NCBI GenBank assembly: GCA_963793425.1 | Contig: CAWCAG010000009.1 | Span: forward strand, 704,001-768,000 | Origin: an uncultured cyanobacterium | Lineage (GTDB): Bacteria > Cyanobacteriota > Cyanobacteriia > Cyanobacteriales > CAWCAG01 | Direction: 5' to 3' | DNA length: 64,000 nucleotides | Shown here: positions 1-3,000 of the stretch, in pieces | Numbering within the stretch: the stretch's first letter is position 1 | How the letters are laid out: each line of letters begins with the position of its first letter | Program-made: the position numbers

Positions 1-3000
1 ATGCCTTCAAAGCCAGTGCAAATCTGGTCGCCTGCTTTTATATGTTCTAATTAAGGAGGAGAGATTATGTTAGAAAATAAACCAGTTTGAAACTACCATG
101 AAACCTAAAATAAATATCTTGCAGACAAGTATTACCACCCTTAAAATCGATGCTATCGTTAATGCAGCAAATAGTTCTTTATTAGGGGGAGGCGGTGTTG
201 ATGGAGCAATTCATCGAGCCGCAGGACAGGAATTAGTGCAAGAATGTCGTTTGTTGGGTGGGTGCAAAACGGGGCAAGCTAAAATTACTAAAGGTTATCA
301 ACTACCAGCCAAATACGTTATTCATACAGTAGGCCCAGTTTGGCAAGGTGGCAAGAATGGTGAAGCAAAGTTATTAGCTTCTTGCTATGATTCTTGTTTT
401 CAGTTAGCTAAAAAACATCAACTTAAAACTATAGCTTTTCCGGCTATTAGCTGTGGAGTTTATGGCTATCCTATTGAGCAAGCAATTCCTATTGCTTTTC
501 AAGCTACTTTAAACTTTTTATCTCAAAATGAGAGCTTCAAAGAAGTAATTTTTGCTTGTTTTAGTGATGAGGTTTACTCGTCTTATTTAAAGGTGAAAGA
601 AGAGTTACTAAATTAGTTTGACGATCACTTTTGTTAACGGAGTTAAATAATACCTAGCATAGATTAAATAACTGCGAAATTGTGTCATATTTAAGGTGAA
701 GTAATCTAAGGTAAATCATGTTAGAAGTTTCTGAGCATCCAATGGGTAAGATCATCACCAAGTTAACCATAATCAATCGTGCCGATCAAAATGTGGCAGC
801 ACGAGGATATATTCCGACAGATGAAGTGCGCTCTGTCACCCTAGATAACGTTTTGGTAGATACAGGAGCAACAACTCTTTGTTTGCCAGCTAATACTATC
901 GCTAAACTTGGTTTAGATATCCTCAAAGAAGTTGATGTAGAAACAGCTAATGGCATTGGTAAAGCAAGAATTTTTCAGGATGCAAAAATCTCTTTATTAG
1001 GTAGAGAAGGTACGTTTGAATGTTTAGAATTGCCTGGTGGTACTAACCCTTTGTTAGGAGTTATCCCTTTAGAAGCTTTAGGCCTTGAATTAGATTTACA
1101 AAATCAAAAGTTAGTTACTTTGCCGATTAATCCCACCAAAACTTACCTAACAATTCTTTAGTAATTTTTAGGTATTAATCAAAACAAAAAATCTTGCGGA
1201 TATAGTGTAAAGGTAGCATCTGAGCTTTCCAAGCTTTAGGTACGAGTTCAAATCTCGTTATCCGCTTGCCTAGTTTGCCAAAAACTAGCAACAAACCCCT
1301 ATAGCTCAGCGCAGAGAGCAGCGCCTTTCTAAGGCGAGAGTCCTAGGTTGGAATCCTAGTGAGGGTGTTTAAATGTAGTAAAATAAAGGAGGTTATTTTC
1401 TGTTGCAACTAATTAAACACCGCATCTGCAATACAATCGCATTATCTAGCGTGACCTAATCATGAGAGCATACATACCGAGTACGAGAGGAATAAGTACC
1501 TCTGCCCTAGTTGCAGAGGGCGTGAAACATTGTTGGTACAAAGAACCCGGCAGGTTGGCTTAGAAGCAGCCATCCTTTAAAGAGTGCGTAATAGCTCATC
1601 GGCGGAGTGCCTTCTGATGTGATGAACGCTAAAAAGCTCTGATAACTTGCACGCCAAGAGCGATTGTATTGCCATAAAAAAAATACCTTGCACAACAAAG
1701 CTATTCTACTTTGAATAAAGTTTGCTCATTCAGATTTGCAGCAAACTCTAGTACCTCTAGCAATGTTTAATGTTTAATGTTCAATGATTTAGGGAGTTAA
1801 CCATGCCTGTAATTGTGATGGAAGTTAAGAGTGCAGAGAAACATCCTCATGCTGATACTTTGCAGCTCTATACTATGGTTGCTCCGGGTTATGAACAGGT
1901 ACAAATTGTTGCTAATCTGGAAAATATTTATCAAGTTGGTGATGTTGTGGCTGTTGCTTTAGTTGATTCTGTGCTTAAAGATGGGACGAAAATCAAACCT
2001 GTTAAGCTTAGAGGTATTTACTCTTTTGGTATGGCTTTAGGAAAAGTAGAAGCTGCAATTGCGAGGAATCTATCCCAAACCTATTGCCAAAAGGAGATAG
2101 TAGATAATGTACAGCTACAAAAATGGCCGAGTATTGAACTTTTAGCTAATGTACGTCGGAGTTTAGAAATTCTGGAGAAAACACCATCTGTTACTTATCG
2201 TAGCAAAGTCAAGCTAGATGGGACAAATGGTGGAGTGCAGATTTTTGCGAATGGTAAGGTTGCGGCTCAAAGTAGAACACAAATTATCACTCCAGAAAGT
2301 GATAATGCTGGGTTTGCTGCTTGGGTAAACCAGAACATTGACTATTTTGCAAACTTGGCTACCTCACAACATTTAACCTTGTTTGGTGAATGGTGCGGTA
2401 AAGGTATTCAAAAGCGTACAGCTATTGCTCAAATTGAACGTAAAGTTTTTGCTATCTTTGCGGTGCAATATGGAGGCATAGGTAGTCAGGTTGCTAAGTT
2501 AGCAGTTAATCCGGCTTCTATCCGTGCTTTGCTACCAGAACATTCTGACATTTTTGTCTTACCATTCTGGGGAGAAGCAATTACCTTGGATTTCGGGAAT
2601 GCAGCACAATTAGCACAAGCTGCTGAGAAGTTCAATTCTCTGGTTGAGGATGTTGAAGCAGTAGATCCTTGGGTTGAAGAGACTTTTGGCATCAAAGGCA
2701 TTGGTGAAGGATTGGTGATGTATCCGCAGAGTGATACCTTGGTAGATAGGCTAGAATATAGCCAATTGTTGTTTAAAGCTAAGGGTGATAAGCATCAGGT
2801 TGTCAAAACCAAAAAGCCTGTGCAAATTGCTCCTGAAGTGGCCAAGGGTGTTGATGAATTTGTCGAAATGTTCATTACGCCAGCACGTTTGGAACAAGCT
2901 ACAACGGAGGCTTGCCAAGGAGGGTTTGTGATGCAGAAAATTGGTGCATTTCTGAAATGGGTTAATACCGATGTTCAAAAAGAAAGTGTGGCTGAATTAG

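Follow-up and report, generated by a model that had tools for sequence, protein, structure and literature searches.

The locus and its features

We analysed a 64-kb stretch of cyanobacterial DNA, which we call the window. Near its start, an RNA element lies 3′ of genes for tRNA-Gly(UCC) and tRNA-Arg(UCU) and 5′ of an RNA-ligase gene (Table 1). We refer to it as the SRL+GAC element, after the sarcin-ricin loop (SRL) and the GTPase-associated centre (GAC) of 23S rRNA. The genome-wide survey's note had placed the element at 1446-1657, and these bounds are correct when checked against the sequence. Covariance model R1 scores it at 193.7 bits (region 1440-1665), and this genome contains a single copy. 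In this copy, a 13-bp stem, P0, brackets the element. The register of stem P3 was set by eye here, since the model places it one base out. In the DNA around the element, promoter and terminator scans revealed background levels only. A single-sequence fold of 1440-1665 gave z = -0.84 relative to shuffles, a value that is uninformative for a multi-domain RNA.

Table 1. Genes near the start of the window and parts of the SRL+GAC element, by position in the window
Feature	Positions	Strand	Remarks
Macro-domain protein gene	98..616	+	Pfam Macro 3e-49
Aspartyl-protease-like protein gene	718..1161	+	Pfam; recurs in these arrays
tRNA-Gly(UCC)	1196..1266	+	Upstream array remnant; ARAGORN; Rfam tRNA 61.8 bits
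tRNA-Arg(UCU)	1295..1367	+	ARAGORN; usual upstream neighbour of the element
Outer stem P0, 5′ arm	1428..1440	+	Pairs with 1660-1672; repeat search, 13 nt, 100% complementary
SRL+GAC element, ~206 nt	1449..1654	+	From P1 5′ strand to P1 3′ strand
P1 5′ strand (GCGUG)	1449..1453	+	Pairs with 1650-1654
5′ internal loop ACCUAAUC (family motif CCYAAY)	1454..1461	+	Common to TROVE-adjacent Y-RNA-like genes
P2 5′ strand	1462..1469	+	Pairs with 1636-1643
UACAUAC	1471..1477	+	Last 3 bases open the SRL stem; same place in Y-RNA-like genes
SRL hairpin	1475..1498	+	Dodecamer AGUACGAGAGGA at 1480-1491, closed by UAC/GUA
Pvar (variable hairpin)	1500..1518	+	All 6 pairs compensatory
P3 5′ strand	1519..1523	+	Pairs with 1626-1630; encloses the GAC arm
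23S H42-H43-H44 copy (GAC, L11/thiostrepton region)	1535..1611	+	Rfam LSU model
P2 3′ strand	1636..1643	+	Pairs with 1462-1469
3′ internal loop AACUUG	1644..1649	+	Common to Y-RNA-like genes and Rfam YrlA consensus
P1 3′ strand (CACGC)	1650..1654	+	Pairs with 1449-1453
Outer stem P0, 3′ arm	1660..1672	+	Pairs with 1428-1440
RNA ligase gene, N-terminal tRNA-binding domain	1803..3092	+	Pfam RNA_ligase 3.5e-12, tRNA_bind 4.3e-8
NADAR ADP-ribosyl hydrolase gene	3206..3685	+	Pfam NADAR 8.9e-43

Distribution, structure and genomic context of the RNA family

We found 110 distinct full-length copies of the element. They are patchily distributed, in 108 of 401 Cyanobacteriales genomes. Copies occur in 18 of 38 sampled families as well as in a second order, and overall identity is 72-82%. 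The R1 model gives 152.8-256.5 bits for 99 full-length copies, versus 45-63 bits for true 23S, whose matches are partial (~70 nt). Our searches reproduced exactly an earlier count of 11 element-bearing genomes in a phylum-wide sample of 151. They also agree with the survey that neither a same-genus genome (G027) nor a same-family genome (G059) has a copy.

Degenerate second copies were observed at L060, L081 and L103 (153-166 bits), and fragments at L055 and L056. In a search of a plasmid collection, a Kovacikia minuta plasmid (unannotated) was found to carry one full-length copy; the remaining matches are all real 23S, and no annotated example of the element occurs there. A Chloroflexota sequence (L159) is a variant with the SRL only, and a divergent copy is present in Obscuribacterales (L180). 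These two sequences hint that rRNA-mimicking Y RNAs are perhaps a wider, modular class. A match in Clostridia (L192) that resulted from a pattern scan was rejected as a chance match in which the frame is absent.

The alignment of the 99 full-length copies supports a conserved structured RNA. In these copies, 91.3% of the cells in paired columns are paired, versus 36.6-50.9% for slid controls. Compensatory double changes are found in 27 of 52 pairs, versus 11-16 in slid controls, and none of 500 shuffles reached this number. Cells with double changes number 408, versus 38-116 in slid controls. Among the individual stems, P1 exhibits compensatory changes in 5/6 pairs, P2 in 4/8 and Pvar in 6/6, with 93.6% of Pvar cells paired. 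Within the GAC arm, the inner stem of H42 is 99.0% paired (3/4 pairs compensatory), H43 is 98.5% paired (3/6) and H44 is 100% paired (1/2). The SRL closing stem is 90.6% paired. P3 has compensatory changes in 3/6 pairs in the family alignment; in the subclass of this genome's copy, the covariance-model alignment is out of register by 1-3 columns at P3 and at the outer stem of H42, and therefore the counts for both stems are underestimates.

Some positions do not vary at all. In the 5′ loop, C16, C17 and A20 are invariant in 30 of 30 copies, as is the sequence UACAUAC. By default, RNAalifold pairs UACAUAC with the 5′ side of H44. We rejected this pairing in favour of an rRNA-type H44, because it is broken in exactly the copies with a C at 1092 (2/30). 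We abandoned an all-against-all scan of column pairs, the result of which was dominated by G/U-rich columns. Given 110 homologues in other genomes and a structure test that exceeds its controls, the element is not a chance occurrence. It is an RNA family rather than a stray piece of rRNA.

Copies of the element are located inside tRNA arrays in 72 of 110 cases, where they share their strand with all the tRNAs and lie away from the TROVE gene. Their position in the array is fixed: they follow a tRNA-Arg and precede tRNA-Ala or tRNA-Arg(UCU). The upstream neighbour within 300 nt is tRNA-Arg(UCU) at 42 of the 110 loci. The survey's note had described the element as sitting in arrays, after tRNA-Arg and before tRNA-Ala. 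This holds for most copies, but 37 of the 110 (about a third) are outside arrays.

Genes for PARG, NADAR, Macro or Tpt1 proteins are present in the flanks of 53 of the 110 loci. Counted by family, PARG occurs at 27 loci, NADAR at 21, Tpt1 at 10, RNA ligase at 10 and Macro at 8. The NADAR gene is typically directly 3′ of the element (median +78 nt, 21 loci), while Tpt1 (10 loci) and the tRNA_bind RNA ligase (10 loci) adjoin the element on the same strand. An aspartyl-protease-like protein cluster occurs at 8 of the 110 loci. The flanks examined contain no toxin gene that consistently accompanies the element. Just 3′ of stand-alone copies is a gene for a 281-aa protein, which has no match in Pfam, PADLOC, PDB or the Atlas; its AlphaFold model has a mean pLDDT of 43.7. 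In the available passages of PMC8421152, VapC, MazF and RelE toxins are described as induced together with the Anabaena tRNA array, and those of PMC8421152 and PMC10272220 describe cyanobacterial L-arrays as induced under translational stress.

Ribosome mimicry and the Y-type frame

Two arms of the element copy the SRL and the GAC, as the survey's note had claimed. The dodecamer AGTACGAGAGGA at 1480-1491 is the same as that in H95 of the genome's own 23S, and its other copy in the window occurs only in the true 23S gene (62923, minus strand). It is unchanged in 98 of 99 copies of the element, has the sequence of the bulged-G motif and the GAGA tetraloop, set in a hairpin, and includes toxin target bases. 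The GAC arm, at 1535-1611, is the sole match of the Rfam bacterial LSU model (model positions 1080-1157, 61 bits, E 1.4e-15). This alignment spans H42, H43 and H44, including their pairs.

The element's GAC has 87% identity over 55 nt to that of the resident 23S and differs from it in the loop and stem of H43, so we excluded both a recent copy of the resident gene and gene conversion from it. We also rejected a bacterial LSU rRNA gene or pseudogene. The similarity is limited to model positions 1080-1157 and is not collinear with 23S, because the SRL 12-mer precedes the GAC, whereas the order in 23S is the opposite, and the flanks consist of tRNAs and a foreign frame.

The base triple 1072/(1092-1099) and the U1060-A1088 contact are features of the GAC tertiary fold. 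In the element, U1060 and A1088 are present in 99 of 99 copies. The three-base set is U/U-A in 91 copies, C/C-G in 5, C/U-A in 2 and U/U-G in 1. Thus, 96 of the 99 copies are in one of two matched states, between which all three bases switch together, and the C/C-G state occurs in at least two lineages of the tree. Other GAC positions are less constant. A1095 is kept in 98 of 99 copies, but position 1067 is A in 75, G in 21 and C in 3, and positions 1068, 1070, 1096 and 1097 are likewise variable. We take A1067 and A1095 to be bases that contact factors or drugs, and assume that the drifting loop bases face factors on the ribosome. A base other than A at 1067 weakens thiopeptide binding. Given that these factor-facing bases drift, we are less certain of an exact decoy role toward drugs or factors that bind the GAC than of the binding of a protein that is specific to the fold. 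The comparison with 23S supports an element that carries a strictly conserved SRL dodecamer together with a GAC copy that is predicted to fold.

The ends of the element resemble a different kind of RNA. Y-RNA-like genes (C5:853037-854218) and a gene for a Ro60-like protein had been reported elsewhere in this genome, along with a closing stem common to these genes and the element. We confirmed both the genes and the common stem, and the frame of these Y-RNA-like genes, loops included, is almost base-for-base that of the element. The R1 model also yields 23 weak matches (21-46 bits) that span both model ends and correspond to Y-RNA-like genes that have this stem and its loops, and genes with this frame recur in 8 further TROVE loci. 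The 480-aa neighbour protein matches TROVE-domain proteins in PDB (E 6.7e-5). The ACUUG of the 3′ loop agrees with the Rfam YrlA consensus, and the Rfam YrlA model has no match in 1440-1665 at E-values up to 1. Other bacterial Y RNAs bear a tRNA-like module.

A TROVE gene occurs just upstream of the element, on the same strand, at 17 of the 110 loci. A TROVE gene is present in 105 of the 108 genomes with the element, versus 40 of the 293 genomes without it, where the genomes are related and not independent. The three element-bearing genomes that lack a TROVE match are all drafts. It could be that both features simply track large filamentous genomes. The stem and loops held in common suggest that this frame is a Ro60 binding site, and that the element may itself be bound by a Ro60-like protein. 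A gene for an L7/L12 paralogue lies inside the Y-RNA/TROVE cluster in 8 genomes, belonging to 3 families. Since only 8 of the 401 genomes have this paralogue at E 1e-28, it is not a general partner of the element, which is present in 5 of these 8.

Possible functions and comparison with known systems

Based on the family, its structure, its mimicry, the frame held in common with Y-RNA-like genes and the genomic linkage to TROVE, we infer binding to Ro60, the kind of protein that the module binds and a physiological role. Our main reading, to which we assign a probability of roughly 55%, is that Ro60-associated (Y-type) RNAs include a new class, represented by the element, in which the effector module is a mimic of the ribosomal factor-binding site and acts as bait or tether. 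A Y-type RNA with such a mimic as its module was also the proposal of the survey's note. The conserved structure, the SRL and GAC copies, the common frame and the TROVE linkage agree with this proposal in part; the drift of GAC loop bases and the copies outside arrays qualify it. Against a Y-type RNA we also counted the 72 of 110 copies located away from TROVE genes and the lack of a YrlA match. The literature searched contains no published description of an SRL+GAC RNA or of an rRNA-like Y RNA; the supplementary candidate lists of Chen et al. 2014 were outside this search and might bear on novelty.

As a Y-type RNA, the element would be transcribed within tRNA arrays or TROVE operons and could be freed when the tRNAs are processed or the flanking stems are cleaved. 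Its 5′ and 3′ ends would form the closing stem and loops that presumably bind the TROVE/Ro60-like protein. The module is predicted to be a four-way junction with the SRL hairpin, the variable hairpin and an arm with a folded H42-44 GAC domain. It would present, off the ribosome, the RNA surface that is recognized by translation factors and stalk proteins. As bait or tether, the module would bind a protein that normally reads this site and hold it on the Ro60-like protein. The bound protein could be uL11, uL10/bL12 or the locally encoded L12 paralogue; other candidates are a translational GTPase and an enzyme that targets the SRL or GAC. The setting may be translational stress or RNA damage, in which the element would function alongside the adjacent RNA-repair and ADP-ribose-removing enzymes. 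A more elaborate and decidedly tentative idea is that a free-standing RNP replica of the ribosome's GTPase-activating site is assembled on a Ro60-type protein. Here, the SRL and GAC, with stalk proteins that include the dedicated L7/L12 paralogue, would engage, outside the ribosome, either translational GTPases or toxins directed at the ribosome, as an innate sentinel or regulator that parallels tRNA-mimicking Y RNAs.

The ligand might also be hostile rather than cellular, which is what distinguishes a decoy or damage sentinel from the otherwise overlapping bait or tether. In this role, which we regard as possible but markedly less probable, the element would be a stand-in target for agents that hit the factor-binding site, such as VapC20-type SRL endonucleases, N-glycosidases, H44-modifying ADP-ribosyltransferases or thiopeptides. 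It would soak them up, or its damaged form would be sensed and acted on by the Ro60-like protein and repair enzymes. The strictly kept dodecamer (98/99) and the richness of the flanks in genes for mending cut RNA or removing ADP-ribose from RNA are consistent with a decoy. So are reports, in the portions available of each paper, that H44 in the GAC is a target of ADP-ribosylation by a bacterial toxin (PMC8661411), that PARG and NADAR reverse RNA ADP-ribosylation (PMC11833690) and that toxins are induced together with the array (PMC8421152). However, toxins that act catalytically would be poorly held off by a decoy that binds them stoichiometrically, A1067 is replaced in 24 of 99 copies, and the flanks examined have no consistently paired toxin gene. 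Moreover, the arrays carry ADP-ribose and ligase genes as general cargo, and these could serve the tRNAs instead. These enzymes are central to another explanation, in which the element is a scaffold or model substrate. It would recruit the ligase, Tpt1, PARG or NADAR, or activate them, and they would in turn treat damaged rRNA and tRNA. The positions of the NADAR, Tpt1 and ligase genes directly beside the element fit such a role. We nonetheless consider it unlikely: no enzyme family is present at most loci (the maximum is 27/110), and frame conservation and TROVE co-occurrence favour Ro60 as the constant partner.

Still less probable is a sponge or regulator of r-proteins that functions without Ro60. 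Its GAC arm would bind uL11 and uL10/bL12, its SRL arm would bind neighbouring proteins, and it would buffer free r-proteins when ribosome synthesis is disturbed. Both the preserved GAC fold, including the three-base covariation and the tertiary-contact bases, and the drift of loop bases that we presume to be factor-facing fit the binding of a fold-specific protein. Yet the Y-type frame, the TROVE adjacency and co-occurrence and the invariant SRL are left unexplained, and the element is found outside r-protein operons and matches none of the r-protein leader families in Rfam. A functionless passenger, i.e., an ancient chimera built from 23S fragments and carried along in mobile tRNA arrays, would fit the patchy distribution, the absence from the same-genus genome, and the degenerate second copies and fragments. 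This explanation was already disfavoured and appears very improbable in view of the compensatory changes in 27/52 pairs, a 12-mer that is fixed in 98/99 copies despite 72-82% overall identity, the occurrence in 18/38 sampled families and a second order, and the persistence in both array and non-array settings.

The function of bacterial Y RNAs and the ligands of their mimic modules are a long-standing open question. Because the module of the SRL+GAC element recognizably reproduces the most thoroughly studied functional site of the large subunit, candidate ligands can be named and directly tested, namely uL11, uL10/bL12, EF-G, EF-Tu, thiopeptides and SRL- or GAC-directed toxins. Many cyanobacterial Ro60 orthologues may have their "missing" Y RNA in this element. 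The element joins three fields that have been studied separately: stress-induced tRNA arrays, Ro60 biology and the enzymatic reversal of RNA ADP-ribosylation. Judged by its sequence, it looks like a stand-in for the ribosome in responses to translational stress or RNA damage. A small natural RNA with both sites would, in addition, offer a minimal system in which to study the joint action of the SRL and the GAC on translational GTPases.

Compared with H42-44 and H95 of 23S rRNA, the element has an identical dodecamer, aligns across H42-44 and keeps the three-base set and the tertiary-contact bases. However, only ~77 nt plus 12 nt of it are rRNA-like, and these are joined by a foreign junction. 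The element's SRL stem consists of A-U pairs below the motif, its outer H42 stem is shortened and several of its loop bases vary. Most copies have the U/U-A state, whereas the genome's own 23S has C/C-G.

Leaders of r-protein operons, e.g., the L10 leader, are also small RNAs that copy an r-protein binding site of 23S domain II. By contrast, the SRL+GAC element is not 5′ of r-protein genes, but neighbours tRNAs and RNA-repair genes. It is also far closer to the rRNA in sequence, adds the SRL and has a Y-type frame. The element has a fixed place in cyanobacterial L-arrays, on the same strand, but is not a tRNA, and the 37 copies outside arrays set it apart from them. The available text of PMC8421152 and PMC10272220 has no passage for "23S" or "rRNA" that would indicate an rRNA-like gene in the arrays.

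The YrlA-type Y RNAs (RF02553), which are bound by Rsr/Ro60, are reported by Chen et al. 2014 (PMC4201824) to be few in cyanobacteria, and the text returned for that paper does not contain an rRNA-like module. Their module is tRNA-like, with a T-arm, a D-arm and an acceptor-like stem, whereas that of our element consists of the SRL hairpin and the GAC domain. The element is about twice as long, its copies are mostly in tRNA arrays (72/110) rather than beside rsr, and the YrlA model does not match it. Nevertheless, the element resembles YrlA-type RNAs in its paired ends, its conserved internal loop and its 3′ ACUUG, as well as in its TROVE adjacency (17/110 loci) and co-occurrence (105/108 genomes). 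Both are modular, in that a frame is combined with a module that mimics an RNA of translation.

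An rRNA-like RNA gene and its conserved structure

The element is an RNA gene of ~206 nt that joins copies of the 23S sarcin-ricin loop (SRL, helix 95) and GTPase-associated centre (GAC, helices H42, H43 and H44). Its match to the Rfam bacterial LSU model is confined to 1535-1611 (model 1080-1157, 61 bits), and the H42, H43 and H44 pairs are reproduced in this alignment. The SRL dodecamer, AGTACGAGAGGA, lies at 1480-1491 and occurs a second time in the window only in helix 95 of the true 23S gene. The genome-wide survey's note had placed the element correctly within the window (1446-1657), but its offset of 672000 should read 704000. 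The source genome carries one copy. Over 55 nt the GAC of its own 23S is only 87% identical to the element, and its H43 differs in both stem and loop; the element has therefore not been copied recently from the resident rRNA. Around the window's copy, an outer stem formed by a perfect 13-bp inverted repeat (1428-1440 with 1660-1672) could be a processing stem; this extension is shorter or absent in other copies.

Features of the window around and beyond the element
Feature	Position	Strand	Source
Macro-domain gene, upstream of element	98-616		Pfam
Aspartyl-protease-like gene, upstream of element	718-1161		Pfam
tRNA-Gly(UCC)	1196-1266	+	ARAGORN
tRNA-Arg(UCU)	1295-1367	+	ARAGORN
Element	1449-1654	+	
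RNA_ligase + tRNA_bind domain gene, next after element	1803-3092		Pfam
NADAR gene, next after RNA ligase gene	3206-3685		Pfam
tRNA-like 3' half (T-arm and acceptor end)	~3905-3999		
tRNA-Lys(UUU)-like gene	4042-4140		Rfam
CHAT-domain gene, after array remnant	4352-6133	-	Pfam
Fused glycosyltransferase/TPS-domain gene, after array remnant	6545-9232	-	Pfam
NsiR1 sRNA	21072-21128	-	Rfam
SRP RNA	39585-39681	+	Rfam
5S gene and 3' part of 23S gene	62496-64000	-	Rfam

We built the structure manually from the alignment together with the rRNA pairs in Rfam. Stems P1 and P2 close the molecule; a junction bears two hairpins, the SRL and a variable one, as well as P3, which encloses the H42-44 arm. With 30 copies aligned by MAFFT, 91.0% of cells are paired, compared with 38-52% for slid partners, and both sides change in 18 pairs (slid, 3-12), a number reached by none of 500 shuffles. 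When 99 copies are aligned to the model, the paired fraction is 91.3% (slid, 36.6-50.9%), with double changes in 27 of 52 pairs (slid, 11-16; shuffle mean 19.1; 0/500 reach this) and 408 double-change cells against 38-116. This second alignment is fitted to the model and hence biased towards it, a bias from which the MAFFT alignment is free. Compensation is seen in every varying helix, including the variable hairpin (6/6 pairs), P1 (5/6), the inner H42 stem (3/4) and H43 (3/6).

Of 99 copies, 98 have an identical SRL dodecamer, despite an overall identity of 72-82%, and the rRNA stem below it has been swapped for A-U pairs. In the GAC arm, most positions are near-fixed; in E. coli numbering, U1060 and A1088 are each present in 99/99 copies and A1095 in 98/99. 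Positions 1072, 1092 and 1099 are reported, in work of the Draper and Gutell laboratories, to make up a base triple of the GAC fold, for which C/(C-G) and U/(U-A) are the natural alternatives. Among the copies, 1072/(1092-1099) is U/U-A in 91, C/C-G in 5, C/U-A in 2 and U/U-G in 1. The C/C-G state, also found in the source genome's own 23S, is shared by the window's copy and a distinct clade of the midpoint-rooted tree. This joint three-base switch is hard to explain unless selection acts on the GAC tertiary fold. Position 1067 is A in only 75 of the 99 copies (G in 21, C in 3), and 1068, 1070, 1096 and 1097 also vary. On the ribosome these loop bases face factors and thiopeptides, and their drift counts against perfect mimicry of the GAC.

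Distribution and gene neighbourhoods

BLAST of 401 genomes of the same order gave near-full-length matches with 72-82% identity, while true 23S matched over only ~47-64 nt (84-98% identity). From 29 BLAST loci and 80 further fetched loci we obtained 110 full-length copies including the window's own, all distinct in sequence; they score 138-240 bits in a profile search, compared with 40 bits for true 23S. The copies come from 108 genomes, three of which have a second copy; one further genome, G173, is counted from BLAST alone. By a hand count of the BLAST results, 18 of 38 sampled families have the element. As the survey had found, BLAST reveals no such match in a genome of the same genus (G027) or one of the same family (G059). 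Its phylum-wide figure also stands: R1, the covariance model of the family, has full-length hits (157-234 bits) in 11 of 151 genomes, one of them from another order of the class, and true 23S gives only partial hits (45-63 bits).

A pattern scan of 185,579 species representatives (UACAUAC, 0-4 bases, then the dodecamer) matched at least 121 stretches. Nearly all the matches listed are in cyanobacteria (Nostoc, Microcoleus, Tolypothrix, Moorena, Fischerella, Calothrix and others), and 77 of 80 loci among them score 161-249 bits with R1. Three of the 80 are unusual. A typical full copy (184.6 bits; L171:84-302, -) on a contig labelled as an Acidobacteriota MAG may have been transferred horizontally or misbinned. 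In a Candidatus Obscuribacterales genome, the full copy behind a tRNA (L180:67-300, -) is divergent (70.7 bits). In Ktedonobacterales (Chloroflexota), a 128-nt RNA (L159:177-304, -; R1 35.7 bits) has the element's Y-type frame and the SRL dodecamer without the GAC arm, and is an SRL-only relative outside cyanobacteria. Second copies in three genomes of one genus (L060, L081, L103; 153-166 bits) lie ~9-11 kb from the first, have broken H44 pairs and adjoin methyltransferase, Tpt1 and AAA genes. Truncated fragments occur at L055:5667-5796 and L056:779-994.

The tRNAs found in the 110 loci all share the element's strand; the fetched flanks hold at least four tRNAs in 72 copies, at most two in 37 and three in one. 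The 300 nt upstream contain tRNA-Arg(UCU) in 42 loci, tRNA-Arg(UCG) in 15, a CUA-anticodon tRNA in 5 and some other tRNA in 3; in 45 they contain no tRNA. The corresponding downstream counts are 27 for tRNA-Ala(UGC), 14 for tRNA-Arg(UCU), 7 for tRNA-Ala(GGC), 3 for others and 59 for none. The CUA-anticodon tRNA, called "Pyl" by ARAGORN, is amber-suppressor-like; it directly precedes the element in L009, L011, L012, L013 and L020, where tRNA-Arg(UCU) stands elsewhere. At the far end of three arrays, an EF-Tu gene follows tRNA-Lys and tRNA-Ser(GGA) (L040:4-1041, -; also L045 and L066), with no fusA before it within the fetched stretch.

We clustered the protein neighbours of the 110 loci and scanned them against Pfam. 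The families found are microbial PARG (27 loci), NADAR (21), TROVE (17), GNAT (15), a 281-aa protein of no known family (15), ThiF-like (13), RNA ligase (10), Tpt1/KptA (10), AAA ATPase (9) and Macro (8); at least one ADP-ribose-processing gene is present in 53 loci. Stand-alone copies sit in recurrent operons. One type has the order TROVE, sometimes DUF4291 or another gene, element, 281-aa protein, ThiF and sometimes M90 peptidase; another has TROVE, element, sometimes a methyltransferase, Tpt1 and AAA. The conserved 281-aa protein (L092:2033-2875, -, and 12 relatives) is encoded ~80 nt downstream of stand-alone copies and is followed by a ThiF/E1-like gene, often then an M90 peptidase gene. 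It has no match in Pfam, PADLOC, PDB or Atlas, and its AlphaFold model is too poor to use.

The Y-RNA frame and a Ro60-like protein

R1 also has 23 weak hits (21-46 bits, 88-216 nt) spanning both model ends. Of these, 22 measure 88-163 nt, and the one beyond this range, in L056, is a degenerate element fragment rather than a Y-like gene. All the others have the element's stem, CCYAAY loop, short second stem, UACAUAC and AACUUG loop, around an interior of tRNA-like or short modules. The survey's claim that the closing stem is common to the Y-RNA-like genes of the source genome (~C5:853031-854226, on another contig) is borne out, as these have the same stem and loops. They score 34-36 bits with Rfam's YrlA model, under its threshold of 69. 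In the window, a weak YrlA match (24 bits) spans the tRNA-like 3' half and tRNA-Lys(UUU)-like gene downstream of NADAR (3905-4140), from which the CCYAAY/ACUUG frame is absent. The tRNA-Lys(UUU)-like gene (Rfam tRNA, 57.7 bits) has a 31-nt insertion in its T-loop and was missed by ARAGORN.

Directly downstream of the source genome's Y-RNA-like genes is a 502-aa open frame, 71% identical to a 480-aa protein encoded before the element in other genomes. The latter matches PDB chains named "TROVE domain-containing protein" (E 6.7e-5, residues 26-397) and also contains a weak VWA domain; Ro60 combines the same two domains, TROVE and VWA. A TROVE homologue (E up to 1e-20) occurs in 145 of the 401 genomes: 105 of 108 with the element and 40 of 293 without. 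The three exceptions with the element are drafts. The Fisher value for this co-occurrence is overstated because the genomes are related; the contrast of 97% with 14% is still large despite this kinship.

A possible lead towards the ribosomal stalk is a 128-aa L7/L12 paralogue (L134:1501-1884, equal to C5:853714-854097, outside the window). It is encoded just upstream of the TROVE gene, with four Y-RNA-like genes on one side and a fifth, short one on the other. Its C-terminal domain is clear (E 4e-22) and its N-terminal domain only marginal (0.007); the canonical rplL, elsewhere on the contig, is 42% identical. The paralogue (E up to 1e-28) occurs in 8 of 401 genomes, which represent 3 families; it always lies among Y-RNA-like genes, and 7 of its loci show a TROVE gene. 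The element is present in only 5 of these 8 genomes, and the paralogue is part of the Ro60/Y-RNA cluster, not specific to the element.

Possible roles and relation to known Y RNAs

These results establish an RNA of conserved structure in which a Y-RNA frame carries both an invariant SRL motif and a folded GAC domain. In the genome its gene is linked to that of a Ro60-like protein and accompanies tRNA arrays, as well as genes for repairing RNA or removing ADP-ribose. We propose that the element serves as a bait or tether, to which we assign a probability of roughly 55%: the Ro60-like protein would bind the frame, and the SRL/GAC module would bind a ligand whose usual target is the factor-binding site of the ribosome. 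We chose this model because of the analogy with the tethering role of Y RNAs, as presented in parts of PMC4201824.

The main rival, that the element is a decoy or sentinel, fits the ADP-ribose hydrolases encoded around it (PMC11833690) and a toxin known to ADP-ribosylate H44 (PMC8661411). The drift of A1067 weakens it, and a stoichiometric decoy is poor logic against catalytic toxins; we consider it fairly unlikely. Other readings account for less of the evidence: a scaffold for repair enzymes seems improbable, a sponge for r-proteins slightly more so, and a passenger without function very improbable indeed.

No Rfam family besides LSU matches the element, and we found no description of it in the literature covered, which was mainly open and included accessible parts of both L-array papers and of the YrlA paper's main text. 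The portions of the latter (Chen et al. 2014, PMC4201824) that concern cyanobacteria report few YrlA RNAs there, a gap that the element may partly fill. The YrlA consensus and the element's frame have an ACUUG 3' loop in common, and we classify the element as a Y RNA with an rRNA-mimicking module.
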